The translations under genes were made by a program, and so were the position numbers. Shown piece by piece: positions 1-18,038 of a stretch of DNA of 53,257 bases (its first letter is position 1; the number at the start of each line of letters is the position of its first letter). Below the pieces are notes generated by a model. The model was not told where the DNA came from and ran no database searches. It worked only from the letters and a program-made list of their open reading frames with translations. Origin of the DNA: a virus (Duplodnaviria; Caudoviricetes); the IMG/VR virus record IMGVR_UViG_3300030376_008154, positions 1 to 53,257 of that record. The stretch is one strand, 5' to 3'.

Positions 1-117
1 CATTACATTTACGCAGTTATACCAGGTGGTGGAAGTGGAGCTTCCTCTTATGCACCAATCTTGTATGTTGCTGACTTAGAAAATCCAAATAACTTCAAAA
101 AGAAGTTACAACCTTAA
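1..117 (+). CDS. 3' end of a gene truncated by the window edge, possibly another pilin-like protein
   Basis: Frame 1 is open from base 1: HYIYAVIPGGGSGASSYAPILYVADLENPNNFKKKLQP-TAA. It lies directly upstream of the pilin genes; the pilin guess rests on position only. Confidence 0.6.
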   Translation, partial: HYIYAVIPGGGSGASSYAPILYVADLENPNNFKKKLQP

Positions 118-145
118 AATCAGACTCGAAAGAGCGGAGAAAATC

Positions 146-571
146 ATGAAGAACAATAAAGGATTTACACTTATTGAATTAATTATGGTTACGATTATAT
201 TAGGTATACTAGCAGCTGTTGCTATTCCAAGATATATGACTACTGTGACAAAAGCAGAAGAAGCAGCTGAAGATGCAGTTATTAATGCTATCAAAGCTGG
301 TTTAGAAACTTATGCCGTAGAACAACTTATGGATTCAGGTCGTAAGACATGGCCTACTAACCCATGGGAGTCATTAGATACAAAACCTACTGGATACACT
401 ACAGATGCTACTGATGCAGATGTTGATGGAGAATGGACATACAATACCACTTCTAAGAAAATCACACATCAGCGTAATGATAACTCTCGTGTGGGTTGGC
501 TATATGATGAGGGTACACAGACAGGAGATAATGCTTCTGTTGGTACACTTGGTGCAAGAGCTAATCTATAG
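146..571 (+). CDS. Type IV pilin/pseudopilin-like protein (prepilin N-terminal cleavage/methylation domain)
   Basis: MKNNKG|FTLIELIMVTIILGILAAVAIPRY is a class III signal peptide with G-1, F+1, E+5 and a hydrophobic helix; GGAG RBS upstream. Confidence 0.93.
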   Translation: MKNNKGFTLIELIMVTIILGILAAVAIPRYMTTVTKAEEAAEDAVINAIKAGLETYAVEQLMDSGRKTWPTNPWESLDTKPTGYTTDATDADVDGEWTYNTTSKKITHQRNDNSRVGWLYDEGTQTGDNASVGTLGARANL

Positions 572-582
572 GAGTTACATCA

Positions 583-1023
583 ATGAAAAACTCTAAGGGG
601 TTTACTCTGATAGAGTTAGTAGTAACTATTGCTTTGGTGGGGATACTTGTTGGTTCGGTTATCCCCACTTTTTTTAGTACGGTGAACAAAACTCAATCAT
701 CAGTAAATGTATCAAATATGGTAATTATAAAACAATCATTCATGCAATATTATTATGATAATCATATGATAGGTAATCCACATTTCCCCCAAGTACCACA
801 GGATAGTTTGATGGATGATGTGTACAGGCAAATAATATTAGAAGATGGTAGAACTCCAGATATGTTGTTTAGTGGAGATTTACCTTATAATACAAATCAA
901 AAACCTTATATTTATTATTGGGAAAGCGATACAACAAATGGGTATGTTACTAAGCGTATCGTAATTAAAGATGGTGATTCAGATAGTCCCTCGTATAATC
1001 AAATAGTTATAGGAGAGATTTGA
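583..1023 (+). CDS. Type IV pilin/pseudopilin-like protein
   Basis: MKNSKG|FTLIELVVTIALVGILVGSVIP class III signal peptide; AGGAG RBS. Confidence 0.9.
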   Translation: MKNSKGFTLIELVVTIALVGILVGSVIPTFFSTVNKTQSSVNVSNMVIIKQSFMQYYYDNHMIGNPHFPQVPQDSLMDDVYRQIILEDGRTPDMLFSGDLPYNTNQKPYIYYWESDTTNGYVTKRIVIKDGDSDSPSYNQIVIGEI

Positions 1024-1151
1024 TGAGTAAAGATTTATTAGGTATTCTTATTGCTACTTTGATTGCTTGTGTGATATGGGAACTTGATGAAAGACAAGTA
1101 GTAAAAAAGCATAAGAAGAAAAAACGAATAGAACAACAGGAAAAGAAATGA
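1023..1151 (+). CDS. Small single-TM protein (42 aa), below the ORF-track cutoff
   Basis: MSKDLLGILIATLIACVIWELDERQVVKKHKKKKRIEQQEKK; TGATG overlap with the previous stop and ATGA overlap with the next start. Confidence 0.6.
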   Translation: MSKDLLGILIATLIACVIWELDERQVVKKHKKKKRIEQQEKK

Positions 1152-1546
1152 ATAGTAAAGGTTTCACATTGATAGAAATATTAGTTGTGATTCTTTTGAT
1201 TGGTATAATGAGTGCAGTAGCAATACCGAGATTTGAAAAAAGGATAGAGTTAGAAGAACTAAAGTATGAAAAAGAATTCACATATACACTATGGAAAGAG
1301 TTAGAGGTATATGCAAAAGAACAAGAAGAATTAATAGGTCAAGAAAGTTGGCCCATACATCCACTATCTGTTTTAGGTAGAACAAGAAATGTAATAGTAA
1401 CTTACGAATTAGGAATACCTGATGAAGATAATGAGTGGCAATTTGATGGAACTAAACTATACCATAGGAGAATGAATAATGAGATTTGGTACTTTACTTA
1501 CATACCTAGTAATTTCTATTTGTCTGAACTTCCAATTAAGTTATAG
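1148..1546 (+). CDS. Type IV pilin/pseudopilin-like protein
   Basis: MNSKG|FTLIEILVVILLIGIMSAVAIPRF class III signal peptide; C-terminal domain resembles that of 146..571. Confidence 0.9.
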   Translation: MNSKGFTLIEILVVILLIGIMSAVAIPRFEKRIELEELKYEKEFTYTLWKELEVYAKEQEELIGQESWPIHPLSVLGRTRNVIVTYELGIPDEDNEWQFDGTKLYHRRMNNEIWYFTYIPSNFYLSELPIKL

Positions 1547-1874
1547 TCAAGACGAAGAAGATATACCTGAATTGGATTTAGATGCAATGTGGGAAAACAC
1601 CGTATGGGAAGAAATTCAAGATGTAACTTCTGTAGAATATGAAGTAGAAAAGGTAACTCAAGTTGCTGGTGTTCGTGGAGCAGAAGCAGAGGATGAAGCA
1701 CTTGCATTGTTATATTATAGAAAGAGTATGAAGGGTTTATCCCTTTTAGATTTAAATAAAGCATATGGTAAATTAATACTGAAAAAGGAAGTAATGTTAA
1801 AAAAAGGTATTGATACTAAGAAAATAGATGGATACTTAATTACATTAAAAAAACAAATTCAAAAAAAGTCTTGA
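1479..1874 (+). CDS. Secreted hypothetical protein with a TQVAGVRG motif
   Basis: N-terminal signal-peptide-like segment, acidic N-half, basic C-half; overlaps the last pilin gene. Confidence 0.65.
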   Translation: MRFGTLLTYLVISICLNFQLSYSQDEEDIPELDLDAMWENTVWEEIQDVTSVEYEVEKVTQVAGVRGAEAEDEALALLYYRKSMKGLSLLDLNKAYGKLILKKEVMLKKGIDTKKIDGYLITLKKQIQKKS

Positions 1875-1900
1875 CTCGTATTGCATTTATTTCTTAGCTT
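1871..1900 (+). promoter_or_regulatory. Class-I (early-type) sigma70-like promoter, copy 1
   Basis: A-tract, then TTGACT-N18-TAGCTT; one of five similar copies. Confidence 0.8.
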
Positions 1901-1906
1901 TACTAT

Positions 1907-2431
1907 ATGAATAAATGTAAAAAATGTAGTGTTGAGATTCCAGCCCACAGAATACATCTTGGGTATTCGGAATGTGTTGAATGTTCTACAGTAAAAAAAT
2001 ATGTCTCACATACTATATATCCACATAAAACAGGTGCATGGATACAACCAGTTTCAGAAGAACAATCAGAAAATCTCAATAGATTAGATAGAAGAGGCGT
2101 TGGTGGTTCTAAAAAAGCAAAGGGTGTATTTTCAGATAAAAGTTGGGATAGATTTTTAAAAAACTATCTTAATCCAAAACCACCTAGAAAGAAACACAAA
2201 CCAAAGCCTGTTGTAAACATTTACATTCCAATAAAAGAAGCAATGCAGAAAGTTATCAATGAATTCGATAGTTATGGATATGAATCTGCTTGTCAACTTA
2301 CACAATCATTATATTCTGAAGATAAAATTAGTCTTGTTAACAAATCAAAAATCATAAATGAATTATCAAGCTTACAGATGATGACATCTAAACAAAGAAA
2401 ATTTATGAAAAAACTTCAAAAAAGTACTTGA
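1907..2431 (+). CDS. Hypothetical protein with N-terminal Zn finger (DksA/TraR C4-like spacing)
   Basis: CKKC-x(17)-CVEC at the N-terminus. Confidence 0.6.
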   Translation: MNKCKKCSVEIPAHRIHLGYSECVECSTVKKYVSHTIYPHKTGAWIQPVSEEQSENLNRLDRRGVGGSKKAKGVFSDKSWDRFLKNYLNPKPPRKKHKPKPVVNIYIPIKEAMQKVINEFDSYGYESACQLTQSLYSEDKISLVNKSKIINELSSLQMMTSKQRKFMKKLQKST

Positions 2432-2457
2432 CTTTTATGCAATTTTATTCGTAGCTT
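2428..2457 (+). promoter_or_regulatory. Class-I promoter, copy 2
   Basis: TTGACT-tttatgcaattttattcg-TAGCTT. Confidence 0.8.
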
Positions 2458-2480
2458 TATATATCAATTAAAGGAAATAT

Positions 2481-4502
2481 ATGACAAAGATAAAACACAA
2501 TTTCAATCCAATGGCTCTCAGAGAAAAACACTCTATTGCCGGTAGGACTAATAACTATTCTTCTTTTTGGTTAAATGATGGATGGGATAATACCGGTTCT
2601 ATTTTTGATGAAGAAGAGAAGAAAAAAGGTGTGGATTTAATCGCACTGGCTTCTTATCGTAGGGCTATTAGTAATTTCGTTTCTATCGTTACCGGTGAGT
2701 CTGATATCAAAGTTACTTTCAATACTTCTGGTGATAGTTATACTGATGGTAAAAAAGTTACTATCTCATCTAAGTTAGATGATAAACTATTTGATAGTAC
2801 TGTTGGTTTGGCTTTACATGAAGGTTCTCATATTAAACTTTCAGATTTTGATTTTCTTAGAAATCTCACTTCTCATTTACCTGATGATTTACAAACACTA
2901 TATAATGATAAGGTAAAGGACGGTTCTTTCTTAGCAAACATCAAAAATTTACTCAATTATGTAGAGGATAGAAGAATTGATTATTTTGTTTTTTCTAATT
3001 CACCTGGTTATAAAGGGTATTATCATTCTATGTATGATAAATATTTTCATTCTAAAGTAATTGATAAAGCTCTTCAAACTGATGAGTACACTTCTTTGGA
3101 CTGGGATTCTTATATGTTTAGAATCATCAATCTTACAAATAAGAATTCAGATTTAGATGCACTTCCTGGTTTAAGAGAAATTTATAATACTATCTTTAGT
3201 AAGGTTAAAACTCTTTCTTCAACTAGAGAAGCTTTTTACATCTCGTGTAAGGTTATGAAAGTTATTTTGAATAACATCGTTGTTAAACCAGAGTCTTTAC
3301 AAGAAAATCAACCAACTCCAAGTGATGATGAAAAATCAACAGATGGTGAATCAATAAACACATCGTCAAATGGTGAAGGTGAAAGTACTGATTCTGAATC
3401 TATTGAAAAACCTAAACTATCGGATAATCAAAAGAAGCAACTTCAAAATGCAATCAAAAAGCAACAGAAGTTTATGGATGGTGATATTCAGAAAAAGAAA
3501 CTTACTAAGAAAGACAAAGCTGATATGGATGCAGTAGAAAATGCTGGAATGAATTATGTTGATGTTTCTGGTGTGACTAATGAGTGGACTGGAAAAAAAA
3601 CTCCAACTAAGGTTTTAATGGTTAATAATTTCAATAAGGCGTTGGCTGAATCTAATACAATTCGAATGATTACAAATCCAAGTTACAGATGGGCAGAAGA
3701 TTATAAAGAAGCCATTAATAAAGGTTTACAGATGGGTACTATCTTAGGTAGAAAACTTCAGGTACGTGGTGAATCTCGTGAGACTAAGTGGACTAGATTA
3801 GATAGTGGTCGTATCGATAAGAGATTAATTGCTGAGTTAGGTTTTGGTAATGAGAGGGTTTTCAACACCAGTTTTATTGAATCTTACTCAGATGCTTTTC
3901 TTCACATTTCAGTTGACGCTAGTGGTTCTATGGGCGGAGATAAGTGGACAAATACTCAAACTGCAGTAGTTGCGATTGCTAAAGCTTGTTCAATGATTAA
4001 CAATGTTGATTGTGTAATATCTTATAGAAGTACTCAATGTTCTTCTCAGCATTACAGAAATGGAAAACATCATCCTTTAATGTTAATTGCTTATGATTCT
4101 CGTAAAGATAAGATTTCAAAAGTAAAGAATCTATTTCATCTATTACAACCAGCAGGAACTACACCAGAAGGTTTATGTTTCGAAGCTATTATGAAAGAAA
4201 TTGAACCATCAACTACTGATAAGGATTCTTACTTCCTTAACTTTTCAGATGGGATGCCAATGTTTCAAAATGATGACATCAATTATAATTGGGATACGGC
4301 AATTAATCACACCGCTAAAATGGTTAAGGAAATTCGTAATCGTGGTGTTAAAATTCTTAGTTACTTCATCAGTAGTAGATATGACTCCAGTGATGAAAAG
4401 GGAACATTCACAAAAATGTACGGTTCGGATTCTGAGTTTATTAATGTAACTTCAGTTCTTCCTGTGGCTAAAACAATGAATAAGAAATTCTTACAGAAGT
4501 AA
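2481..4502 (+). CDS. Zincin-motif + VWA domain protein (CobT-like partner of a MoxR-type AAA ATPase)
   Basis: HEGSH and EDRRID in the N-domain, an acidic linker, and C-terminal MIDAS residues VDASGSM...GTT...FSDG. Confidence 0.85.
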   Translation: MTKIKHNFNPMALREKHSIAGRTNNYSSFWLNDGWDNTGSIFDEEEKKKGVDLIALASYRRAISNFVSIVTGESDIKVTFNTSGDSYTDGKKVTISSKLDDKLFDSTVGLALHEGSHIKLSDFDFLRNLTSHLPDDLQTLYNDKVKDGSFLANIKNLLNYVEDRRIDYFVFSNSPGYKGYYHSMYDKYFHSKVIDKALQTDEYTSLDWDSYMFRIINLTNKNSDLDALPGLREIYNTIFSKVKTLSSTREAFYISCKVMKVILNNIVVKPESLQENQPTPSDDEKSTDGESINTSSNGEGESTDSESIEKPKLSDNQKKQLQNAIKKQQKFMDGDIQKKKLTKKDKADMDAVENAGMNYVDVSGVTNEWTGKKTPTKVLMVNNFNKALAESNTIRMITNPSYRWAEDYKEAINKGLQMGTILGRKLQVRGESRETKWTRLDSGRIDKRLIAELGFGNERVFNTSFIESYSDAFLHISVDASGSMGGDKWTNTQTAVVAIAKACSMINNVDCVISYRSTQCSSQHYRNGKHHPLMLIAYDSRKDKISKVKNLFHLLQPAGTTPEGLCFEAIMKEIEPSTTDKDSYFLNFSDGMPMFQNDDINYNWDTAINHTAKMVKEIRNRGVKILSYFISSRYDSSDEKGTFTKMYGSDSEFINVTSVLPVAKTMNKKFLQK

Positions 4503-4678
4503 TGATTAAGTGGTTATTAAAAAAATGGTATAAGCATAGTCCGACCTGTAATTGTGGTTGGACTATGAAACCATTTGAAAGTTATACCGATAGATATCAA
4601 TGGGAATGTATATGGAAAAAATGTGGTTGGGGAGCATTTCAAGATGACCACGGTAGATTACACTGGTGGAAATCGTAA
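4502..4678 (+). CDS. Small Trp/Cys-rich Zn-ribbon-like protein (58 aa), below the ORF-track cutoff
   Basis: MIKWLLKKWYKHSPTCNCGW...WECIWKKCGW...; start overlaps the upstream stop (TAATG). Confidence 0.55.
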   Translation: MIKWLLKKWYKHSPTCNCGWTMKPFESYTDRYQWECIWKKCGWGAFQDDHGRLHWWKS

Positions 4679-4861
4679 ATGGGCTTTTTATTACATTCAA
4701 AAATGGTAAGAGATATGGTTGAAATTTTACTTACAGAATATATTGAAAAATGTAAAAAAAGTAATTCAAAAAATCATACAGAATTTGTTAAAGATTTATT
4801 TACATATTTGAGATATGGTGAATTATCAAAAAACTTTAAAAAAAATGAAAAAAGTACTTGA
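4679..4861 (+). CDS. Hypothetical protein
   Basis: 60-aa ORF abutting the previous gene; stop lies in promoter copy 3. Confidence 0.5.
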   Translation: MGFLLHSKMVRDMVEILLTEYIEKCKKSNSKNHTEFVKDLFTYLRYGELSKNFKKNEKST

Positions 4862-4887
4862 CTCATGTGCAATTTTATTCGTAGCTT
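4858..4887 (+). promoter_or_regulatory. Class-I promoter, copy 3
   Basis: TTGACT-catgtgcaattttattcg-TAGCTT. Confidence 0.8.
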
Positions 4888-4892
4888 AATGT

Positions 4893-6089
4893 ATGACTTT
4901 GAGAGATAAAACAAACAACTTAACAAAAGGAAAAAACAATATGTCAAACGTTGTTGTAAAAATAGAAATGTCGGGTAACCGATATAATGCATGGGATGCT
5001 GATGGTAATAAATTTACATCCCAAATTGGTAATGGTACAAGAAAAAGTGCCTTCCAAAAAGGTATGGCCCTTGAACAGAGGGTAAATAAAAATGGTAAAA
5101 CTTTCTGGTGGAAAGTTCCGATGTCAGTATTTGAATCTTCTACCGCACCAGTAATAGATACTACTGGTATTGACATTCCTACCGATCATGAAGAAGTTCT
5201 CAACTTCATTCATTCTTCTTATAATATTAAACCGCAAGGTTTGGTTATGAAGGAATTGAAGTGGAAGTACTTAGTACGTTCCGCTGTTCGTGGTAAGAAT
5301 ATCCTGATGACAGGTCCTGCAGGATGTGGAAAAACTATGGCTGCTAAGTCATTGGTTAATTCCCTTGACAGGCCAGACTTCTACTTCAACTTAGGAGCCA
5401 CTCAAGACCCCAGAGCTACTCTAATTGGTAATGTACACTTTGATAAAAAGAAAGGTACTTACTTCTCTGAGTCTCTTTTTGTAAAAGCTATTCAAACTCC
5501 AAATGCTGTGATTCTTTTAGATGAGATGAGCAGAGCACATCCTGATGCATGGAATATTCTAATGACAGTTTTGGATAGTGGTCAAAGATACCTCAGACTT
5601 GACGAGTCTGATGGACAAGATACAATCAATGTTGCGGAAGGCGTCACCTTCGTCGCTACTGCTAACATTGGTAATGAGTATACTTCTACCAGAGTTATGG
5701 ATAAGGCCCTAATGGATAGATTCATTGTTGTAGAAATGGATGTTCTCAATTCCGAAGAAGAACATGGGTTGTTGAACTATATGTTCCCACATGTTGATTC
5801 AGACTTATTGAAGTCTGTTGCTGAGATATCAAGCTTGACTCGTAATGAGTCAAAGTCTGAATCAGGTAGGTTGTCAAATGGAATATCAACCAGAACTTCT
5901 GTTGAAATCGCTGGTTTGTTATTCGATGGTTTCAGATTAGAAGAAGCAGCTGAAGTTACTGTCTATCCTCAGTTTTCTGATGATGGTGGACTTGAGTCTG
6001 AAAGAACTTATGTGAAACAGTTAGTTCAAAAGTATATCTCTGATGGCTCTTCTGATGACTTGTTTAATGAAGACGAATTAGAGTCTTAA
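4893..6089 (+). CDS. MoxR/CbbQ/CobS-type AAA+ ATPase (likely true start MSNVV at 4940)
   Basis: Walker A GPAGCGKT, Walker B ILLDE, sensor ATAN, Arg-finger ALMDRF, and ISTR; AAAGGA RBS before 4940. Confidence 0.92.
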   Translation: MTLRDKTNNLTKGKNNMSNVVVKIEMSGNRYNAWDADGNKFTSQIGNGTRKSAFQKGMALEQRVNKNGKTFWWKVPMSVFESSTAPVIDTTGIDIPTDHEEVLNFIHSSYNIKPQGLVMKELKWKYLVRSAVRGKNILMTGPAGCGKTMAAKSLVNSLDRPDFYFNLGATQDPRATLIGNVHFDKKKGTYFSESLFVKAIQTPNAVILLDEMSRAHPDAWNILMTVLDSGQRYLRLDESDGQDTINVAEGVTFVATANIGNEYTSTRVMDKALMDRFIVVEMDVLNSEEEHGLLNYMFPHVDSDLLKSVAEISSLTRNESKSESGRLSNGISTRTSVEIAGLLFDGFRLEEAAEVTVYPQFSDDGGLESERTYVKQLVQKYISDGSSDDLFNEDELES

Positions 6090-6118
6090 TTCTCTCAGAT
6101 ACCATAATGGTGTCTAAT

Positions 6119-6150
6119 GGGGGTCGGGTTTTTCCTTTTTCCTGGCCCCC
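6119..6150 (+). terminator. GC-rich hairpin after the AAA gene (terminator or RNA stabiliser)
   Basis: GGGGGTCGGG pairs with CCTGGCCCCC around a 12-nt pyrimidine loop; no U-tract follows. Confidence 0.5.
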
Positions 6151-6166
6151 TACTTAAATTAAAAAG

Positions 6167-6466
6167 GTGGAGATAGTAATGAAAAAAACAGCTTTTAATG
6201 ATTACGAAAGGTTTCTTGTAATCGCACATAAAACAAAAAATTTGCCCCCAAACTACACCGTATATTTACAGTATAAAGAAGTGTTAGAATTTGTCTCAGG
6301 TATTGCTGGTAGCAATAGTGATGTATTTTCTTATAAAGGTAATATTTATAATAAGAAGATAACTTCTGGTCAGGCTATGCATATATTAAATTCACATAAT
6401 AATTGCAAGTTCGACTCTAATTTAATAATTTGTGCAAATCAAATAGGTGTACAATTAGGAGGATAA
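6167..6466 (+). CDS. Hypothetical protein
   Basis: ORF in operon orientation; GGAG before the ATG at 6179 suggests that start. Confidence 0.6.
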   Translation: MEIVMKKTAFNDYERFLVIAHKTKNLPPNYTVYLQYKEVLEFVSGIAGSNSDVFSYKGNIYNKKITSGQAMHILNSHNNCKFDSNLIICANQIGVQLGG

Positions 6467-6469
6467 GTT

Positions 6470-6856
6470 ATGGGCAAGCAAGTAAAGAAACATGGATATA
6501 GTTGTAAGTTAGTTAGGGTGGTCGATGGTGACACTTGTGACGCTATGATTGATTTAGGATTTGATGTTTGGGTAAAAAATAGAATTAGATTTTATGGTGT
6601 TGATACTTGGGAAAGTAGAACACGAGATTTAGAAGAAAAAGCAAAAGGTTTAGAAGCAAAAGCTTATGTAAAAGACCTTTTAGAAAATTCTGATGATGGT
6701 AAGTTTAGTATAATATCACACGGTAGGGGTAAGTATGGTCGTGTACTCGGAGAGTTATTTGTTAAAGGACATGAGAAATCTGTTAATGAATTATTGAAAG
6801 AGAATGGACATGCATATGAATATCATGGAGAGAAGAAAAAAATATTTGGGAGTTAA
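6470..6856 (+). CDS. Staphylococcal-nuclease-like (thermonuclease) protein
   Basis: RVVDGDT, RIRFYGVDTWE, GKYGRVLG and VNELLKENGHA motifs. Confidence 0.92.
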   Translation: MGKQVKKHGYSCKLVRVVDGDTCDAMIDLGFDVWVKNRIRFYGVDTWESRTRDLEEKAKGLEAKAYVKDLLENSDDGKFSIISHGRGKYGRVLGELFVKGHEKSVNELLKENGHAYEYHGEKKKIFGS

Positions 6857-6859
6857 AAA

Positions 6860-7800
6860 ATGAGTGAAAGAGAAGAATCTGCTGTGCGGAGTCAGACTAT
6901 TCTCTTAATGATGAGGAATCATTCGAAACCACATATCATTAAAAGAGTTGTAAAAAGATTTTTGAAGTGTATGAAAAGTTGATGAAGAAGATATGCATCA
7001 ACATAAGAGAAGATAATTCTAAGTTGTCCTTACTTGAATTGAAAAGAAAAGTAGGACCACCAAAGTTAATTTTTAGAAAAAAACGATGAGGTTATAATGT
7101 CAAAAAAGAAAAAGAGTCAGTTCAATCATTACAAAAAGTGGACTACAGATGAAGGTTATTCATTCGTAGCAGAATCCAAAGAGGATGCTATAGATTACCT
7201 TAAACATATAGGACACACAAACTTAGGTAAGTTGAAAGAAGTTAAAAAGTGAAAGATAAATGTATTTACTGTAATAAGGATACTATTTATAATAGAGAAG
7301 AACATATTGATTTCAGAATAGGTTATATAGAATGTTCTGGCCAACTATGTTTAGATTGTTATGATGAAATTTATGTAGGAGTAAAAAATGCCAAAGGGAA
7401 ATATAAGCCCAGTAGAGCGACAAGTAAAAGTGATAAAAACAGAGATATCAGAAATATCTGAAAATATAAAATCAATTTATAAATTACTAAAAAGAGATTC
7501 AAAATACTCTATGTCAGTTGAAGAAAACGATAGTACTTCATTAACCTATATTAAGAAATTAGCTGATTCAATTGAAGAGGAAGGATAGGAAAAATGGTTA
7601 GAAAAAGTTACAGGCTTTTAGAAACCGTATCTACAGTTGAAGGGACGATATACAAAGGAGATATAGTTCATTTTCAAAACGAAGAAGATAACGGTGATTG
7701 GAGAGTAAAAGATACTATGGGAAAGATTTGGTATATTAAACCGCAACAACTTACTGATAATCCAGTAATTTTATCAAAAGAGAAAGAGAATGAATAATTT
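6860..7800 (+). other. Run of small hypothetical ORFs (including 6860..6982, 7097..7252, 7249..7461, 7388..7588, 7594..7797)
   Basis: Tightly packed, co-oriented 40-70 aa ORFs with overlapping starts/stops; 7249..7461 has CIYC...CLDC and 7594..7797 looks like a small SH3-type barrel. Confidence 0.6.
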
Positions 7801-7917
7801 TGAAAAAGTAATTGAAGATGTAAAAATATTTATATTAGGTGATAGAAGAGATGGTGATGATCGTAGAGTGAAAAAATCAAAACGTAAACGTACCAGAAGA
7901 AAATCAAATAGAAGGGT

Positions 7918-8415
7918 ATGAGAGAGAGACTTAAGCAATATACAGAAGTTGACATCCATAAAGTAAATTATTTTGATAACGAAGATTTATTTGAAACAAT
8001 AAAACAAAAAGCAATTACTAAAGATAAAGGTGCGTGGATGACAAGTTGGTATGAAGAATCTTTTCAGCAAATTGCTAATTACATTATGGACTATATAAAT
8101 TCTTTAGATTTTATAGGTAAGACGCCAATAGCTATTGGTCCTCAATTAGAGCATATGCATCTGTGGGGGCAAATATACAATGAGAATGATTATCAAGAAT
8201 CACACGATCACGTACCACATAATTTATCTTGGATATATTTTGTTAACACACCAAGCGGTTCTTCGTCTGTAGTATTTGAGGATTCTGATTTGGAGATACT
8301 TCCTACAAAGGGTAAGGTGTTGATATTTCCAAGCTGGGTACGACATTATGTACCACCTAATAAATGCAAGGGAAGAGCAATAATAGCAGGTAATATTAGT
8401 TATGCACGAGACTAA
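7918..8415 (+). CDS. 2OG-Fe(II) oxygenase family protein
   Basis: HDH...LSWIYFV...G.VLIFPSWVRHYV...R.IIAGN pattern. Confidence 0.85.
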   Translation: MRERLKQYTEVDIHKVNYFDNEDLFETIKQKAITKDKGAWMTSWYEESFQQIANYIMDYINSLDFIGKTPIAIGPQLEHMHLWGQIYNENDYQESHDHVPHNLSWIYFVNTPSGSSSVVFEDSDLEILPTKGKVLIFPSWVRHYVPPNKCKGRAIIAGNISYARD

Positions 8416-8433
8416 AGTATTTGGAGATTACAC

Positions 8434-8802
8434 ATGAGTAGCAAGTTAAAAGAGCTCGATAAAAGAATAGAAATATTAGAAAATAAGTTTAAAGACTTTA
8501 TGGACAATTGGGGTCCTGATGTACAACGCCGGAGAGATGAACGTGATGAACGTTGGGATGAAATGGTTAGAGTACTTACCATTCAAGAAAGACAAAAAGA
8601 AAGGGAGCAGTCAATTAAATTTGATAATAAGGGTAAATTAGTAAAAACCGATATTCATAATAATGTATATAACTCAAAAAGAATGAGTGACAAACAATAT
8701 GATTTTGCGGAAGATGTCGAAGGTGAGAAACTGATTAGCCAATATAACAGAAATAGACCATCTTCCGAACATATATCGAATGTAAATGAGATTCCTAAGT
8801 AG
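8434..8802 (+). CDS. Hypothetical protein, N-terminal coiled coil
   Basis: GGAG RBS; 122-aa ORF. Confidence 0.6.
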   Translation: MSSKLKELDKRIEILENKFKDFMDNWGPDVQRRRDERDERWDEMVRVLTIQERQKEREQSIKFDNKGKLVKTDIHNNVYNSKRMSDKQYDFAEDVEGEKLISQYNRNRPSSEHISNVNEIPK

Positions 8803-9118
8803 TTTTTTTTTACTAACTTTTATATCTTGTACAAATTCCCCAAGTGGTGCATTTGAACATAGTAATACTATATATTATCTTGATGATAAATTCCATGAAG
8901 ATATTCCAGAGGAATATATTTTTAAAGTTTGGGGATATAGAATTATAGATGCCTTAGGCAAGGAACATACTTACAGAACTAAAGTAGATATACCACATCA
9001 AAGAAAAGGTGCTGAGTGGTGTACGATTCATAGATTATGGGAAGATATTAAAGCTATGTATAATGGAAAAGAATATTGGTACTATGTATCTGTAAATAAA
9101 AGAATGAATAGGAGATAA
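8786..9118 (+). CDS. Putative lipoprotein
   Basis: MRFLSSFFLLTFIS|C lipobox-like N-terminus. Confidence 0.6.
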   Translation: MRFLSSFFLLTFISCTNSPSGAFEHSNTIYYLDDKFHEDIPEEYIFKVWGYRIIDALGKEHTYRTKVDIPHQRKGAEWCTIHRLWEDIKAMYNGKEYWYYVSVNKRMNRR

Positions 9119-9120
9119 AA

Positions 9121-9687
9121 ATGTTAGATAGTTTATTAGTCGGTGTAATGTTATTTAGCTCACTTGCAGTGAGAACACCAAACACAAAGCCTAATCCTGA
9201 TGACTACGAGGTTAGTATAGGTGTTAGCCATCCAGATTATTATTTCAATCGTCAATGGGAAAGAGAATTGGGGACTAAGTATATTGATGATTTATTTTGG
9301 GCTAAGTTCGATAATGGTGTATATTTTAAACCAGAGTACATGAATAAAGAAAGTAAATCTGTCAAATATTTAAAGATTGACTGGCGTAGGAGTTTTAAAG
9401 GACTCAGTGCTGGTTTAACCACTCGTTCTATAACGGATAAATTAGATGTTTATGAAACCTTTGTTTCGGTGGGTTGGAGTAAGAAAAAAACCTATTGGGA
9501 AAAGGTAGATATAGAATTTTCTGTTGATGGTTACTCTCCACCTGAGCAAGATTTTGAATATGAGAATAAATTTAAAGTTAGCTGGAAACTAACAGAGAAA
9601 ATAAGACTATATAATTTAGGCGAGATATCAAAGCTTAAAGGAACTCAGTTTTATAAAGCTAAAGTTGGTGTAGAGTATTCTTTATAA
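9121..9687 (+). CDS. Putative outer-membrane beta-barrel protein
   Basis: Hydrophobic N-terminus, repeated amphipathic strands (YEVSIGVSH, TFVSVGWSK, FEYENKFKVSWKL) and a C-terminal KAKVGVEYSL beta-signal-like strand. Confidence 0.6.
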   Translation: MLDSLLVGVMLFSSLAVRTPNTKPNPDDYEVSIGVSHPDYYFNRQWERELGTKYIDDLFWAKFDNGVYFKPEYMNKESKSVKYLKIDWRRSFKGLSAGLTTRSITDKLDVYETFVSVGWSKKKTYWEKVDIEFSVDGYSPPEQDFEYENKFKVSWKLTEKIRLYNLGEISKLKGTQFYKAKVGVEYSL

Positions 9688-9716
9688 TCCGTTATATTTA
9701 TATTTGTATAACGGAG
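9688..9716 (+). promoter_or_regulatory. Hairpin containing an ATATTTATA motif and occluding the RBS of the holin-like gene
   Basis: TCCGTTATA (9688-9696) is the exact reverse complement of TATAACGGA (9707-9715); SD GGAG at 9713-9716. Confidence 0.65.
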
Positions 9717-9722
9717 AAATTT

Positions 9723-10043
9723 ATGCCAGATAAAAAATTATATAAGGGAAATGAGGATAAAGTTATAGACCAAAAACACTATATTAATTCTAAATTAGTA
9801 GAGATTATAGAATACAGACAATCACGAAAGTGGTATATTAGTATTGCTGTTGTCTCTTTGTTTTCTACTATATTAGCACTTATGATATTTTTTATGGCTC
9901 AAGGTAAAGATGTAACGAGTGGTTGGAAAGAAATACTATTACTAATGTTAGGTGGATTTGTTGGTTCATTCGCAAAAGTCATTGACTTTTGGTTTAACAA
10001 TCAAGAAAACGATAATAAACTTTTAGAACATGCGGACGATTGA
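9723..10043 (+). CDS. Two-TM holin-like membrane protein
   Basis: Two TM segments, the second ending LGGFVGSFAKVIDFWF; lies upstream of the endolysin. Confidence 0.55.
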   Translation: MPDKKLYKGNEDKVIDQKHYINSKLVEIIEYRQSRKWYISIAVVSLFSTILALMIFFMAQGKDVTSGWKEILLLMLGGFVGSFAKVIDFWFNNQENDNKLLEHADD

Positions 10044-10045
10044 TT

Positions 10046-10687
10046 ATGAATATAGCAACTATAGCTGGACATTTAGCCTTTGGATTAATAGCCTTTTCTT
10101 TTCTGGTCAAGGACATATTATGGTTACGGGTTGTATCTATATTAGCGAGTCTTTTCTCGGTATTTTATAATTATTTCATACCAATTGAACCCATGTGGTT
10201 GGCTATCAATTGGAATATCGTCTTTGTTCTTGTAAATCTCTATCACATAGCAGTTATCGTATATGAAAAACGACCTATTAAAATGGCACCAAAAGACAAA
10301 GAGTTATACGAAACTCTGTTTAAAGATTTAAGTCCTGTTGAATATCTAAAGATAACAAAGATAGCAGAATGGAAAAAATTTAAAGCTGGTGATACTTTAA
10401 TTAGAGAATCACATATGGTTACTGATTTAATTTTAATATACAATGGAACTGTTGATGTCAATGTAAAAGGTGAAAAAGTTGCTGAATTAAAAGATGGGCA
10501 GTTCGTAGGCGAGATGTCATTCCTTACAGAGAAATCAGCAACTGCTGATTGTGTGGTAAAGCATGATACTGAATGTATATTATGGAAACAGCCTGAGTTT
10601 AAGGATTTATTAAAAAGAAACCCATCTTTGTATTATACCATACAGGGTTTATTAAGTAATCAATTGATAAGCTACAGTAGTAAGTAA
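10046..10687 (+). CDS. Popeye-like membrane protein with C-terminal cyclic-nucleotide-binding domain
   Basis: Three TM helices (…KDILWLR…WNIVFVLVNLY) then a cNMP-binding fold (GDTLIRE, LIYNGTVDV, GQFVGEMSFLT, ATADC). Confidence 0.85.
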   Translation: MNIATIAGHLAFGLIAFSFLVKDILWLRVVSILASLFSVFYNYFIPIEPMWLAINWNIVFVLVNLYHIAVIVYEKRPIKMAPKDKELYETLFKDLSPVEYLKITKIAEWKKFKAGDTLIRESHMVTDLILIYNGTVDVNVKGEKVAELKDGQFVGEMSFLTEKSATADCVVKHDTECILWKQPEFKDLLKRNPSLYYTIQGLLSNQLISYSSK

Positions 10688-10698
10688 AGGAGAAAAAA

Positions 10699-11175
10699 AT
10701 GTTAATTAATTTTGACGAAATAATTGAAGTAGTATTACACCACGAAGGTGGATATGTAAACGATCCTGATGATCCAGGAGGAGAGACTAATTTTGGTATA
10801 GCTAAACGTAGTCATCCCGATGTAGATATTGCTAACCTAACAAAAGATGGTGCTAAAGAAATCTACAAAGAACATTATTGGGATAAAAATAAAGTAGAAT
10901 CTTTATCAGAAGATTTAAGACATATTTATTTTGATATGTGTGTAAATCAAGGTAGAGGAAGAGCAGTAAAAATTCTTCAACAAGCTGCTAATGCTAAAGG
11001 TGCTGATTTAGTCGTAGATGGTGGAATGGGTCCTAAGACTATTGCTGCTATGGACGGTGTAGAACTACAAAGAGTTAGAGCATATAGAGTAAAGTATTAT
11101 GCTGATTTAGTAACCCGAAAGCCTGACTTAGAAAAATTTTACTTTGGATGGTTTCGTAGAGCATTGGAAGTATAA
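10699..11175 (+). CDS. Endolysin, glycoside hydrolase family 108
   Basis: HEGGYVNDPDDPGGETNFGI, FDMCVNQG, VDGGMGPKT and C-terminal F..GW..R. Confidence 0.93.
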   Translation: MLINFDEIIEVVLHHEGGYVNDPDDPGGETNFGIAKRSHPDVDIANLTKDGAKEIYKEHYWDKNKVESLSEDLRHIYFDMCVNQGRGRAVKILQQAANAKGADLVVDGGMGPKTIAAMDGVELQRVRAYRVKYYADLVTRKPDLEKFYFGWFRRALEV

Positions 11176-11406
11176 ATGGCTAGGTATAGAATAATAAAAA
11201 CATTTATGACCAAACCTGAGGAGTGGGATTTTAAACATGGGACATGGCCACCAAATCCTACTGCGTGGGTTGCTCAATTAGATGATAGTGATACACTTTG
11301 GGAGTTTAGTGGAAGTAATGCATCTGCTTCTGCAGTTACTAAAAAAGACGAATTACAATCAGCTGATGTTAATCGAAAATATAAGATAGAAGAATTACCT
11401 GAATGA
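11176..11406 (+). CDS. Hypothetical protein
   Basis: 76-aa ORF abutting the endolysin stop. Confidence 0.6.
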   Translation: MARYRIIKTFMTKPEEWDFKHGTWPPNPTAWVAQLDDSDTLWEFSGSNASASAVTKKDELQSADVNRKYKIEELPE

Positions 11407-11882
11407 ATAATAAGTTATATGTAGATAAACTAAAAGCAGAAGTAAAGTTTTTGAAATTGGAGTCGCAGTATATAAGAAGTTTATTTGAAAGTGCATTATT
11501 AGAATTTAATAATCAGTTTAAAGAAAATTTAGAAAATAAAAAAACTCAACAAAACCAAAAACCAAAAAAGTCTAAGAGTAAAAACTTGGATAAGATATAC
11601 AAAAAAATAGCTAATAAAGTACATCCTGATAAGCCACTTGGGAGTAAAGCAACTTTCAATGAACTAACTAATTTAGTTGAACAAAATGATTTAAGTGGTT
11701 TGATGAATATGGCCGAAACTTATAATATAGATGTTATGAAAGATATTAATATTAAAACATACGAAGTAGTTGTTGATGATTTAAAAGATACTATAGATGA
11801 GTATAAATCTACTATAGCATATCAATGGAAATATAGTAATCAGGCTACAAAAAATAAAATAGAGTCTATTATAAAAAAGTAG
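11403..11882 (+). CDS. J-domain-like (DnaJ-type) protein
   Basis: YKKIANKVHPDK helix II-HPD motif. Confidence 0.75.
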   Translation: MNNKLYVDKLKAEVKFLKLESQYIRSLFESALLEFNNQFKENLENKKTQQNQKPKKSKSKNLDKIYKKIANKVHPDKPLGSKATFNELTNLVEQNDLSGLMNMAETYNIDVMKDINIKTYEVVVDDLKDTIDEYKSTIAYQWKYSNQATKNKIESIIKK

Positions 11883-11904
11883 TATGGTGATATTTATATA
11901 TAAT

Positions 11905-12000
11905 TCATACCACCGAAAGAATGGGGAGCATATTTAAGATGGGTGGAGATATTTTTATTTCTCAAAGATTGATAACCCGCTCTACTTTCGTCTGGTGTGA
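11905..12000 (+). ncRNA. Candidate structured ncRNA, family unassigned
   Basis: Nested stems TCATACCA/TGGTGTGA, CGAAAG/CTTTCG, GGAGC/GCTCT, GGGT/ACCC and GAGA/TCTC; ATATTTATA motif upstream and a T-run downstream. Confidence 0.55.
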
Positions 12001-12158
12001 TTTTTTACAAAAAAAAATGTTTTTTTTACATAAAACTTAATATTTATATATACAATATGACATACGCACAAATGTGGTATAGATATTGTAACATATGTTT
12101 GTATTGCTCATAATGAGAATACAAGTTTGACTAACAGTAAACAACATGGAGAAATAAA

Positions 12159-12635
12159 ATGACTAAAGTTACTTTTCATCGCGGATTGCCCGTAATAGAT
12201 AGAGATTCCTTTTTAACACCGTTTGATAGAATGTTTGATGAAATTGTAGGAAAATCTTTTCCTGAAATCAATCAACAAGTTGGAGTAAACCCATTCCAAG
12301 GTACAGCATATCCAAAAGTTAACGTATATGAATACGATGACAAAATTGGAGTGATTGCTGAAATACCTGGTTTGGATAAGAAGGATTTAACTGTCGAAGT
12401 TGAGGAAGGTATATTAACCGTATCTGGTGAAAAATCACATGGATTCTTTGATGAAACCAAAGCTAAAGTACTGAGACGTGAGTTGAAACATTCACAGTTC
12501 AAAAGGCAATTTACTTTGGGTGATATGTTAGATGGAGAAAGTATCTCTGCTAACTTCAAAGATGGTATCTTATCAATAGAGATTCCAAAAATTGAACCCG
12601 AACTTCCAAAGAAAAACGTTGTCAAAATTAAGTAA
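12159..12635 (+). CDS. hsp20: Small heat-shock protein (Hsp20/alpha-crystallin)
   Basis: PKVNVYE, AEIPGLDKKDL, LTVSGEK, FKRQFTL and ANFKDGILSIEIPK motifs, plus a C-terminal VKI. Confidence 0.95.
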   Translation: MTKVTFHRGLPVIDRDSFLTPFDRMFDEIVGKSFPEINQQVGVNPFQGTAYPKVNVYEYDDKIGVIAEIPGLDKKDLTVEVEEGILTVSGEKSHGFFDETKAKVLRRELKHSQFKRQFTLGDMLDGESISANFKDGILSIEIPKIEPELPKKNVVKIK

Positions 12636-12816
12636 TAAATTAATTTCGACTAACAATAGGTTGTATTATGTTCTTGGAACGGCTTCGGTAAATTCTGGTT
12701 ATAACGTAGATGAACTCAAAAAGATGTGGAGATTAGCTGATGCCGTTCTCAAGAACGGAAATAAATACTATATATGTAATGAAATCATAAATGCAGAATT
12801 TAAAGTTATAAAATAG
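12592..12816 (+). CDS. Hypothetical protein (true start probably downstream of 12592)
   Basis: Fills the gap after Hsp20. Confidence 0.5.
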   Translation: MNPNFQRKTLSKLSNKLISTNNRLYYVLGTASVNSGYNVDELKKMWRLADAVLKNGNKYYICNEIINAEFKVIK

Positions 12817-12854
12817 GTTAAGTATATTTATTATTAATATACAGGAGAACCTTA

Positions 12855-13733
12855 ATGTTTGAACAATCTAAACAATTCAATAAGTTAGTTGGATTTTCGG
12901 CTTTATCTATTGCCGGTAGTGCAGCTTTCTTTTCAGTTTATGGTTTATCAAAGTTATTTGCAGGAGCTCAACTTGCTGTAATAATTATGGCAGGTTCATT
13001 GGAGTTTGGGAAACTAGTTGCGGCGTCGTTTTTATATAGGTACTGGAAAGTAATAAATACATTTCATAAAACCTATATGACAATAGCAACCATAATACTA
13101 ATACTGATTACCTCAGCTGGTATATTTGGTTTTCTATCTAACGCATATCAAGGTGCTACAGTATCTTTTGAGAAAGAAACTACCGCGTTACTATATAAAG
13201 AAGATAGACTAGACCAATTAAAAGAAGATAAAACATTTCTTAAAGAAGAGTTAGAAGCAGCTGTAGCTGAGTTACCTGATAATTACAGAACAGCAAAAAG
13301 AAAACTCAGAGAAGAATATCAACCAAAGATAAATAAAATTAATGAAGATATAATAAATCTCAAAAGTGAAGTTGGTGATTTAAAAGTACAGATAATTGAA
13401 ACTGGTGTTGAAGTCGGACCTGCTATTTATTTGGCGAAAGTATTTGATACTGATGTCGATACTGTAGTTAAATTCTTTATCTTTGTACTTATATTTGTTT
13501 TTGATCCAATGGCAGTAATATTTGTGATAAGTTACAATGTAACCTTATTAGATCAAAAAAATTCTCCAAAAGCTAGTTCCAATACCAACATTACCACAAA
13601 GAAAAAATGGTGGGAAGTTTATGGTGAAAAAGATAAAAAGGTAGAAGTACCGATAACTGTAAATCAAGAAACTGGAGAGGAAGAAGAACTTCCAACACCA
13701 CGTGGTGCAATAATTAGGAAAAAAAAGACTTGA
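12855..13733 (+). CDS. Multi-TM membrane protein with central coiled coil
   Basis: Three N-terminal TM segments, a coiled coil, then a TM ending FVFDP; AGGAG RBS. Confidence 0.75.
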   Translation: MFEQSKQFNKLVGFSALSIAGSAAFFSVYGLSKLFAGAQLAVIIMAGSLEFGKLVAASFLYRYWKVINTFHKTYMTIATIILILITSAGIFGFLSNAYQGATVSFEKETTALLYKEDRLDQLKEDKTFLKEELEAAVAELPDNYRTAKRKLREEYQPKINKINEDIINLKSEVGDLKVQIIETGVEVGPAIYLAKVFDTDVDTVVKFFIFVLIFVFDPMAVIFVISYNVTLLDQKNSPKASSNTNITTKKKWWEVYGEKDKKVEVPITVNQETGEEEELPTPRGAIIRKKKT

Positions 13734-13759
13734 CTTGTATTGCAATTCTTTTGTAGCTT
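13730..13759 (+). promoter_or_regulatory. Class-I promoter, copy 4
   Basis: TTGACT-tgtattgcaattcttttg-TAGCTT. Confidence 0.78.
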
Positions 13760-13785
13760 AACATATAAAGAAGAGGTAAAAAATC

Positions 13786-14304
13786 ATGATAAAAACAAAA
13801 AGTGCTATTGCGGTGATAGTAACTATTACAATAATAAATGGTTTATTTTCAACTAAGATGTTTAAGAAATACGATAATATGTATCGTTCACAAATTACTG
13901 AATTGAAAATCAGTAATGATAGATTAAAGAATACACTTTCTGAATATCAGAAGTATGGTGTGATTGTGGATGTTACAATGTATCAGCCTGACAGAATACA
14001 ATGTGATGATACACCTGATATTACCGCAGACGGTACTCGTATTAGAATACACAAAGCTTCAGAATATAAGTTTGTAGCACTATCTCGTAACCTACTTAAA
14101 AGGTGGGGTGGTCCTTTTGATTACGGTGATTTCATCTTAATTAAAGACGCAGGACACAAAGATGGTGTATATCAAGTAAGGGATACTATGAATCCAAAAT
14201 GGGTTAATGTCGTAGATATCTTAGAATCAAAAGGTGTTGAACCGTATAAGTTCACCAACGCTCACATCTTTAAATTACCATGGGTGGACACACAAAAAGG
14301 ATAA
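13786..14304 (+). CDS. Membrane-anchored 3D-domain (peptidoglycan-active) protein
   Basis: VTMY...QCDDTPDITADG...VALSR...V.DTM....VDI pattern; N-terminal TM. Confidence 0.8.
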   Translation: MIKTKSAIAVIVTITIINGLFSTKMFKKYDNMYRSQITELKISNDRLKNTLSEYQKYGVIVDVTMYQPDRIQCDDTPDITADGTRIRIHKASEYKFVALSRNLLKRWGGPFDYGDFILIKDAGHKDGVYQVRDTMNPKWVNVVDILESKGVEPYKFTNAHIFKLPWVDTQKG

Positions 14305-14311
14305 ATAAGTT

Positions 14312-14734: not shown

Positions 14735-14740
14735 ATAAAT

Positions 14741-16080: not shown

Positions 16081-16083
16081 CTT

Positions 16084-17126: not shown

Positions 17127-17129
17127 CTT

Positions 17130-17548: not shown

Positions 17549-17565
17549 CAAAATTAGGATAAAGT

Positions 17566-17967: not shown

Positions 17968-17985
17968 AAAAAAACAAAAAAAGAC

Positions 17986-18015
17986 TTGACTTATATGCAA
18001 TTTTATTCGTAGCTT
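17986..18015 (+). promoter_or_regulatory. Class-I promoter, copy 5
   Basis: TTGACT-tatatgcaattttattcg-TAGCTT. Confidence 0.8.
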
Positions 18016-18038
18016 AAGGGGTAACGAAAGAGGAATAA

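Follow-up and report, generated by a model that had tools for sequence, protein, structure and literature searches.

A type IV pilin gene cassette of probable host ancestry in a clade of uncultured marine myoviruses

The IMG/VR virus record IMGVR_UViG_3300030376_008154, analysed here over its entire 53,257 bp (the window), opens with a tightly packed series of plus-strand genes, most of which encode proteins resembling subunits of type IV pili (T4P). At its very start (1-117) lie the last 38 codons and the stop codon of a gene for a divergent pilin-like protein of about 208 amino acids (aa), hereafter the long pilin, whose 5′ part lies beyond the contig start and of which a complete relative is found in the related virus locus L001 (7165-7791). 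Three complete pilin genes follow: pilin 1 (146-571, 141 aa), which resembles the PilA-type major pilins of type IVa pili (T4aP), pilin 2 (583-1023, 146 aa) and pilin 3 (1148-1546, 132 aa), a PilA-family paralogue. Between pilins 2 and 3 sits a gene for a small single-pass membrane protein with a very basic tail (1020-1151; 43 aa from a TTG start codon, 42 aa from the ATG at 1023), and the series closes with a secreted-type protein of 131 aa (1479-1874) that has a signal-peptide-like start. Successive genes are separated by gaps of 28 and 11 nucleotides (nt) and then overlap by 4, 4 and 68 nt. The final stop codon, TGA at 1872-1874, falls within the TTGACT of a plus-strand promoter-like repeat (TTGACT-N19-AGCTTTA, 1871-1902) that forms the downstream boundary of the cassette. 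An earlier note on this DNA had described three pilin genes with class III signal peptides and probably a fourth upstream, a 42-aa transmembrane (TM) protein, a secreted protein, tight packing and a last stop codon inside a phage repeat; all of this is borne out, the fourth gene proving to be the tail of the long pilin. The best reading of positions 1-1874 is that they hold most of a host-derived T4aP subunit cassette, and its carriers are a clade of uncultured, apparently virulent marine myoviruses.

The assignment of the three complete pilins begins with their N-termini. They reach 34.6, 34.7 and 30.3 bits, respectively, with the Pfam model N_methyl (PF07963; cut-off 21.2 bits, E values of 1e-8 to 3e-7) and 31.7, 27.1 and 28.9 bits with the NCBIfam model TIGR02532 (cut-off 16.3). 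Each has a basic leader of 5-6 residues that ends in K/S-K-G|FTLIE and passes into a hydrophobic helix, with glycine at -1 and glutamate at +5. The equivalog models (GspG, GspH, ComGC and PilA) are reached by none of the three, and the matches cover only about 55 N-terminal residues. With the GspG model TIGR01710 the scores are 47.4, 37.7 and 30.2 bits against a cut-off of 88.85, over about 57 N-terminal residues; an identity as the major pseudopilin of a type II secretion system (T2SS) was rejected on this ground and because the candidate host context is that of a T4P, not a T2SS. Pilin 2 was also considered, and rejected, as a FimU/GspH homologue (TIGR01708; 24.4 bits against a cut-off of 80), the A3 profile having matched only the N-termini of major pilins, and only its place in the host operon suggests a non-major role.

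Evidence that extends beyond the N-terminus comes from a profile (A1) built from pilin 1 together with 43 diverse relatives. Among solved structures this profile retrieves Geobacter PilA-N (E 3e-17), MshA and Pseudomonas PilA, with GspG weaker (E 1.5e-7), and it aligns with Neisseria PilE over profile positions 10-123 of 166. An AlphaFold2 (AF2) model of pilin 1 made with A1 has a predicted local distance difference test score (pLDDT) of 93 and consists of a helix (residues 9-64) followed by strands at 97-100, 105-109, 115-121 and 134-140. A long N-terminal helix and a β-strand globular domain, the 'lollipop' layout, are thus both predicted. Pilins 1-3, as well as the host PilA discussed below, contain no cysteine and hence lack a C-terminal disulfide-bonded D-region, which is common in type IV pilins, not universal.

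The long pilin is more divergent. Its leader (...G|NSLAEF...) is followed by a hydrophobic stretch and keeps glycine at -1 and glutamate at +5, with asparagine or glutamine at +1. Searches of Pfam and NCBIfam (E<=0.1 or 0.01) assign it to no family, and no curated pilin model is reached. A profile of 16 long pilins nevertheless aligns in register, at G-1 and E+5, with Geobacter PilA-N (E 0.0038), and an AF2 model (mean pLDDT 70) predicts a helix at 17-72 and C-terminal strands. An Atlas search returned viral clusters first and then, as a lead only, a bacterial cluster in which 46% of members have N_methyl. There are 3672 database proteins related to the long pilin at E<=0.001, and every named one is called 'hypothetical'. 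An identity as a Flp/Tad (type IVc) pilin or TadE was rejected: the corresponding models are not reached, the long pilins are 208-252 aa compared with about 50-80 aa for Flp, and they occur in T4aP loci whose PilD carries the A24 N-terminal domain. The 38 residues encoded at 1-117 are 73.7% identical to the product of 9280-9933 in L072, a contig of a Candidatus Marinimicrobia bin. Judged by its sequence, the long pilin is a divergent pilin-like protein and a member of an unnamed family that heads pilin operons.

The two small envelope proteins are less readily classified. The membrane protein is conserved in L006 (4272-4394), where it has a different position in the cassette, and is not found in L001. 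The secreted protein has 5385 database relatives at E<=0.001, all unnamed, and is the final gene in 8 of the 9 cassettes examined (that of the window and eight relatives); its homologues end the cassettes of L001, L002, L003, L004, L006, L019 and L061, and L042, in which the ORF (open reading frame) at this position starts differently, was left out of the comparison. For the window's own copy, database gene callers chose forms of 95-100 aa, so that the presence of a signal peptide depends on the start chosen; homologues of 129 aa span 100% of the long form. Pfam and PHROGs hold no family for this protein or for the TM-anchored cassette proteins of about 140 aa in relatives, and an Atlas search with the long form gave no usable match.

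To establish how widely the cassette occurs, we used as an anchor its CobT-like neighbour, a CobT-like/von Willebrand factor A (vWA) protein of 673 aa that forms a conserved pair with a CobS-like AAA_5/CbbQ_C ATPase of 398 aa (2481-6089 in the window), and obtained 64 related IMG/VR loci. Pilin-type ORFs lie no more than a few kb 5′ of the CobT-like gene in eight of them (L001-L004, L006, L019, L042 and L061); a match to the pilin-motif regular expression in L043 was discounted as a 13-aa chance match. When whole records are considered, N_methyl genes are present in all five close relatives (3, 3, 1, 3 and 3 genes) and in one of five more distant records, G010, where a single N_methyl pilin has a long-pilin gene and the promoter motif described below upstream of it. 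A scan for the long pilin found the gene in seven further contigs, in each of which a PilA-type ORF comes after it, and the tally, G010 included, stands at 16 other virus records.

The most informative of these is G001, in which the cassette starts about 54 kb into a 125.6-kb contig, ahead of genes that are also found downstream of it in the window. On its 5′ side are genes for PhoH, glycosyltransferases and a family-B DNA polymerase (phrog_262, E 4.6e-189), all on one strand and with a guanine-plus-cytosine (GC) fraction of 0.33. In the window, too, the strand and GC (0.33) of the cassette agree with those of the remaining sequence. Independent assemblies lead to the same result: in Logan contigs from three DNA runs, each of a different study, all 30 bins of window 1-5000 are covered, and contigs of two DNA runs from two studies span the 3′ edge of the cassette without mismatch (for example 1671-1933 and 1665-2178). 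The earlier note had allowed that the upstream DNA might be a bacterial T4P or T2SS operon, or that no related phage might carry the cassette. Neither is the case: virus contigs as long as 125.6 kb have the cassette in their interior, in G001 flanked by phage genes and without a prophage junction, and it is therefore truly phage-borne. Misassembled host DNA or a prophage junction might be suspected since the window begins within the first cassette gene and several related contigs end at or near the cassette, but such an artefact is hard to reconcile with the 16 other virus contigs, the internal copy flanked by phage genes, the matching strand and GC, the bridged 3′ edge and synonymous divergence like that of neighbouring genes (see below), and we consider it extremely improbable.

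Contig ends do recur here. Virus contigs often start or stop in or near the cassette (the window and L157 at position 1, and L152, L154, L155 and L158 at contig ends), and many loose ends of Logan contigs fall within it, for example at 933, 1147, 1409, 1448, 1491 and 1627; this frequency suggests strain-level variation that breaks assemblies.

In relatives the long-pilin gene is preceded by a terminator-like hairpin and then by a -24/-12 motif. Among long-pilin genes with at least 100 nt of upstream sequence, TGGYAY-N5-TTGY[AT] occurs no more than 150 nt upstream in 20 of 22 (15 of 15 in phages and 5 of 7 in hosts), against a background of 92 occurrences on both strands of 4.72 Mb, or 0.0029 per 150 nt. 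The canonical form TGGCA-N6-TTGC is found in L042, L061 and the host contig L072, and TTGT at -12 in most phages and the host contig L071. The -24/-12 spacing, together with the occurrence of rpoN and an activator with a PF00158 domain in the candidate hosts, points to a putative sigma-54 promoter. As the motif is common to phage and host long pilins, the unit appears to have travelled with its promoter. In relatives the full unit consists, in order, of a terminator, a sigma-54 promoter, the pilin of about 208 aa, a PilA-type pilin, a second pilin, a phage-specific PilA paralogue and small envelope proteins.

Motifs of this type are not confined to the cassette. A near-copy with one mismatch to the cassette form lies at 12075-12091 of the window, 5′ of an Hsp20 gene (12159-12635), and is conserved in L001 (19462) and L019 (17258); the full -24/-12 motif stands directly 5′ of the CobT-like gene in L002, L003 and L005. 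Promoters of the sigma-54 type may therefore drive several phage accessory genes.

The cellular relatives of the pilins point to a particular group of bacteria. A scan of 185,579 species genomes with the A1 profile gave 377 relatives, of which the best full-length cellular matches to pilin 1 are in L072, from the Candidatus Marinimicrobia bin (73% identity), and L071, an unclassified 583-kb bin contig (59%), followed by two Neomarinimicrobiota bins (L073 and L075) and then by other members of the same superphylum. Directly 5′ of the pilins, L071 and L073 encode a response regulator, PilD (A24_N_bact and Peptidase_A24), PilB, a sigma-54 activator and PilC; the activator of L071, located between pilB and pilC, matches PF00158 (E 8.5e-66) and carries HTH_8. 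L072 has four long-pilin genes and one PilA gene, along with genes for a pilin of 164 aa, three additional minor-type pilins and a Laminin_G_3 protein of 626 aa, and the gene order long pilin-PilA-164-aa pilin is common to this contig and the phage. Identities to L072 are 70% for the long pilin of L001, 73% for pilin 1 and 38.5% for pilin 2. Pilin 2 aligns over its full length, at 38.5-40% identity, with L072 10552-11046 and L071 17511-17981, and is orthologous to the host pilin encoded between the PilA gene or genes and those for the minor pilins. For pilin 3, identity to host PilA paralogues is only 31-35%, and the small membrane protein, the secreted protein and a zinc-finger-like protein encoded downstream have no match in the host loci examined.

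A quick, unrooted IQ-TREE analysis of 61 rows (sequences matching A1 over 95 positions or more, with L151 and duplicates removed) places the pilin 1 clade of eight phage rows as sister to the PilA of L072 (SH-aLRT, the Shimodaira-Hasegawa-like approximate likelihood ratio test, 83), within a group that also holds L071 paralogues (89). Two pilins of L019 join different L071 paralogues (99), and pilin 3 falls in a clade made up of phage sequences only (12 rows, SH-aLRT 100), to which the single pilins of L004, L042, L061, L070, L156 and L158 also belong. Pilin 2 and one long pilin are on very long branches and were not placed. Well-supported branches require the phage label to change at least three times; for an unrooted tree, host-to-phage is the parsimonious direction rather than a proven one. 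ATPases of the T2SSE type (PilB/PilT) and rpoN are present in all four candidate host bins, and the hosts of these phages are likely, on the evidence of the pilin genes, to be Marinimicrobia (SAR406).

In L071 the stretch 7270-19516 contains three long-pilin genes (with products of 221 and 252 aa among them) and a tandem series of at least 15 PilA paralogues. One unit of a long pilin and three PilA genes (8189-10447) is duplicated near-exactly at 10671-12955, and the array looks like a library of alternative pilus types.

If the subunits are host-type, the question arises of what would assemble them. The window has no match to peptidase A24, T2SSF or secretin, and its lone T2SSE match (14.4 bits, below the cut-off) is in the CobS-like AAA gene. 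The earlier note had reported that prepilin peptidase, assembly ATPase, platform protein and secretin are lacking in the window, and the observation extends to 13 cassette-bearing virus records (19-68% complete), in which Peptidase_A24, T2SSE, T2SSF and secretin are above cut-off in none. The T2SSE matches in these records (11.7-15.6 bits) all fall in the P-loop of the CobS-like AAA gene, and an A24 match in G018 (16 bits) was rejected, having five internal stops. Nor is rpoN found in any of the 13. Reliance on the machine of the host is the natural reading of these absences, and they also bear on whether the cassette could instead be part of a pseudopilus or envelope apparatus of the phage's own, serving release, entry or a virion function. 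Such an apparatus would account for the outer-membrane-like, lipoprotein, PilB-N-like, thioredoxin-like and TonB_C proteins encoded near the cassette in relatives, and for the fact that cassettes always add secreted or membrane proteins without counterpart in the host loci examined. Yet ATPase, platform and secretin are lacking in all 13 records, the flanking envelope genes differ among relatives and the core pilins are plainly host-type T4aP subunits, making this a very unlikely explanation.

The envelope-targeted genes adjoining the cassette of L001 (3456-6967) include those for an outer-membrane-like protein of 428 aa, which ends in ...MGF, and a lipoprotein-like protein of 202 aa; in relatives this run also holds a thioredoxin-like secreted protein and small Cys-rich or Lys-rich peptides, and a secreted TonB_C-domain protein is encoded near the cassette of L004 (8674-8997). 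Just 5′ of the cassette in L001 (5958-6593), and likewise in L004 (4041-4640) and L006 (614-1255), is a gene for a protein of about 200 aa that is absent from the window. Its first 55 or so residues resemble the N-terminal domain of PilB (38% identity over 52 aa to three PilB proteins) and are followed by a membrane segment and a coiled coil, and it might dock onto the pilus machine or interfere with it.

The cassette genes evolve as functional genes would. Ratios of nonsynonymous to synonymous substitution (dN/dS) are 0.12-0.22 for pilin 1, 0.13-0.30 for pilin 2, 0.13-0.24 for pilin 3 and 0.17-0.23 for the secreted protein, a cassette range of 0.12-0.30 compared with 0.09-0.16 for neighbouring phage genes. 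Between the window and L001, dS is 0.65-0.84 in the cassette and 0.87-0.96 in its neighbours. Purifying selection and neighbour-like dS together indicate that the cassette genes are functional and are inherited with the phage. In 120 close homologues of pilin 1 the N-terminal assembly helix is invariant and variation is scattered in the globular part (a description of per-site variability, not a test of positive selection), and pilin 1 is identical to the host PilA at 45 of 55 residues in its N-terminal part and at 56 of 86 in its C-terminal part. A conserved helix joined to a more divergent exposed domain is what would be expected of a subunit that fits the host fibre and gives it a different surface.

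These properties bear directly on whether the phage pilins build a pilus or prevent one. The earlier note had proposed that they 'remodel or jam' the host pilus, and the first part of this proposal fits the data better than the second. Dominant-negative phage pilins could poison assembly or retraction, so that the infected cell loses its pili; pilus loss is a known route to exclusion, and some phages are known to make proteins blocking the PilB ATPase. For truncated phage PilA proteins, such an action is proposed in section 17 of one account (PMC12952977). Here, however, all four proteins are full length, with Gly-1 and Glu+5 kept and globular domains conserved, pilin 1 is 73% identical to the host PilA, and four different subunits exceed what poisoning needs. 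Jamming by what appear to be ordinary, conserved and assembly-competent subunits is thus unlikely.

A second alternative is that the phage supplies high-turnover subunits that keep up or boost normal pilus function, whether in particle attachment, uptake of DNA as a nutrient or motility, much as cyanophages supply photosystem proteins. The close copying of fibre subunits, the host type of promoter and the purifying selection on the cassette would all suit this role, as would the fact that PhoH, Hsp20 and the CobS/CobT-like pair, likewise host-like accessory genes, lie in the same region. A precedent is offered by the archaeal virus SNJ2, whose pilins are reported to aid biofilm formation and motility (PMC12426801). 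Against such resupply stand the long-standing phage-only clade of pilin 3, globular domains that differ from the host's to an extent needless for simple resupply, and the lack of a cassette in near-complete distant relatives. We regard resupply as possible, though doubtful.

We favour, at about even odds (a probability of roughly 0.5), the reading that a captured host pilin unit remodels the host fibre, most plausibly so as to exclude competing pilus-binding phages. The unit would be transcribed by host RNA polymerase with RpoN and the host PilR-like activator, the leaders would be cleaved after Gly-1 by the host prepilin peptidase (PilD), and host PilB/PilC would polymerise the phage subunits into a pilus alongside or in place of the host's own. 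The exposed surface of the fibre would thereby be altered, and the most likely benefit would be that pilus-binding phages, siblings included, no longer adsorb to the infected cell. Selection acting on the surface of the pilus would be consistent with both the large host arrays of alternative pilins and the recurrent exchange with phages.

Some evidence bears on expression of the cassette. In the metatranscriptome run X16, assembled contigs fall only on 203-502 (pilin 1) and 920-1083, in 5 of the 30 bins of the 5-kb stretch, bins of 1-5000 that have no RNA contig in this run being no evidence of silence; two other RNA runs, X21 and X22, contain next to no words of the stretch 1-5000. This single run of assembled RNA contigs gives a weak hint that the cassette is expressed.

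Several considerations weigh against remodelling of the host fibre by a captured unit. A Foldseek search of the PDB and BFVD with the pilin 1 model returned no match at E<=0.001, and the claim to a pilin fold rests accordingly on sequence profiles and secondary structure. The promoter of the window's cassette, as deduced from relatives, would lie 5′ of the first base, and a promoter of the sigma-54 type should need host RpoN and a PilR-like activator, which leaves expression during infection less than guaranteed. The RNA contigs come from the same sample as one of the DNA runs and could stem from a near-identical host or phage gene. A virulent phage would have little time to rebuild pili, and none of five records has an integrase. 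All three near-complete (95-100%) distant relatives have no N_methyl gene, and the cassette is therefore dispensable. As the cassette-bearing records are at most 68% complete, a genome-wide absence of machinery is likely rather than proven. Finally, the host assignment draws on the pilin genes and on genome bins. The transfer-messenger RNA (tmRNA) of the phage lends it no independent support, aligning with those of two candidate bins (tag ADYGYMAAA) in the conserved core only; the other two bins have no tmRNA above the cut-off.

Pilin genes in phages are not in themselves new, and in this respect the description of the cassette in the earlier note as an unusual cargo was overstated: PHROGs holds phage pilin families, and pilins of phages and other viruses have been published. 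The window pilins match phrog_27437, phrog_11596, phrog_3433, phrog_13280, phrog_10597 and phrog_11263 over their N-termini, and a tblastn search of 50,697 phage records with pilin 1 gave N-terminal matches alone, with at least 80% query coverage in 0 of 8 records. What is less usual here is that four pilins form a unit with a promoter of its own, of the sigma-54 type. The T4-like Aeromonas phages 44RR and Aeh1 are, like the present viruses, large myoviruses with prepilin-type ORFs (N_methyl-motif ORFs; PMC1524935, Table 3), but theirs are isolated, uncharacterised single ORFs, as are those of the PHROGs pilin families (phrog_3433 and others).

The closest functional parallel is P-FimU of the F10-like prophages of Pseudomonas aeruginosa, which is reported to replace the host FimU and to block tip-binding phages (PMC12952977). 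Both cases involve a host T4P subunit encoded by a phage without machinery genes of its own. P-FimU is one minor tip pilin of temperate siphophages with a cultured host and a function shown by experiment (PMC12952977), whereas the present cassette has four fibre-type pilin genes and a sigma-54 promoter and belongs to large, apparently virulent marine myoviruses. Section 17 of the same source also describes PilA-like proteins of Xylella prophages and of four groups of virulent phages, which share about 50% identity with the host PilA and would, on the proposal made there, alter or block the receptor; these are described there as single genes, and that section mentions no promoter capture or multi-pilin unit, which sets the cassette apart from them as so described (PMC12952977). 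The PilA1-2 proteins of the archaeal pleolipovirus SNJ2 were captured from the host several times, use host PilB/PilC for their secretion and go on to form the dominant pili; that virus is temperate and its pili are the receptor for a second virus, a mutualism opposite in sign to exclusion (PMC12426801).

Compared with the Marinimicrobia loci L071-L073, the phage cassette has the same families, the same gene order and a sigma-54 promoter before the long pilin. The host loci have in addition PilD, PilB, the PilR-like activator, PilC, four further minor pilins and the large Laminin_G_3 protein, and the phage has in addition the phage-only PilA clade and the small envelope proteins. In the literature found, for which coverage of subscription journals is incomplete, there was no multi-pilin cassette in marine myoviruses and there were no pilins in phages of Marinimicrobia. 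The principle is known; the novelty lies in a unit that joins several pilins to a captured sigma-54 promoter, in the unnamed family of long pilins, in a PilA clade confined to phages and in the setting, an abundant uncultured clade of marine myoviruses tied to Marinimicrobia at the level of genes. The replacement of a host surface part by a virus's own version is a newly recognised strategy of phage against phage, known earlier from single pilin genes in cultured systems; here, a whole pilin expression unit, promoter included, would have moved between an abundant uncultured marine phylum and its large phages. The cassette provides a testable host assignment for a widespread phage clade, close relatives of each of its proteins numbering in the thousands in ocean metagenomes. 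It hints at pili as a battleground in the open ocean and draws attention to an unnamed family of long pilin-like proteins at the head of pilin operons.

A broader conjecture, which we advance tentatively and think on balance improbable, is that the sigma-54 promoter, the unnamed long pilins of about 210-250 aa (a class with a G|NSLAEF leader and relatives, likewise without names, in the thousands) and their PilA partners constitute a complete, portable 'pilus-type unit' that Marinimicrobia keep in many alternative copies and that phages steal and swap, the infected cell then switching to a fibre specified by the phage. If true, this would amount to an arms race over pili in one of the most abundant uncultured phyla of the ocean and would, for the first time, link an abundant clade of large marine myoviruses to a host at the gene level, with possibly a two-component fibre of long pilin and PilA.

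The remainder of the record is that of a large phage. All 48 ORFs of at least 100 aa are on the plus strand (nested antisense frames excluded), the GC fraction is about 0.29-0.37, and genes 3′ of the cassette encode, among others, a baseplate wedge protein, a primase and an SbcC-like nuclease. The record has no terminal overlap and a CheckV completeness of 28%; since relatives of 125.6 kb have a rated completeness of 68%, a whole genome should measure roughly 185 kb, and the window is a fragment of a large myovirus genome. A circular contig, in which the ORF at 46520-53257 would continue in frame into 1-117, was ruled out by the lack of terminal overlap, the 28% completeness and the identification of 1-117 as the end of the long pilin. 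A nucleotide search of the 50,697 phage records with window 1-12000 gave zero matches, and the CobT-like protein has only distant matches (<=39%) in the same set.

A tmRNA (Rfam RF00023, 84 bits; predicted tag GDYQPSYSYAA) is followed by tRNA-Ala, tRNA-Cys and tRNA-Gly (17130-17551 and 18660-19164). The repeat that bounds the cassette, in the form TTGACT-N19-AGCTT[TA]A, has plus-strand copies at 1871, 2428, 4858, 13730 and 17986 with 0-1 mismatch, each directly 5′ of a gene; 2 of 100 shuffles reached the total of 8 loose matches. The copies share a TGCAATTTTATTCGT core, and in two cases the stop codon of the preceding gene lies inside the TTGACT. Two giant ORFs occupy 31517-38281 (2254 aa) and 46520-53257 (more than 2246 aa, open at the contig end, with a Gly/Asn-rich fibre-like end), and if these encode tail fibres, their receptor, possibly a pilus, bears on the role of the cassette.

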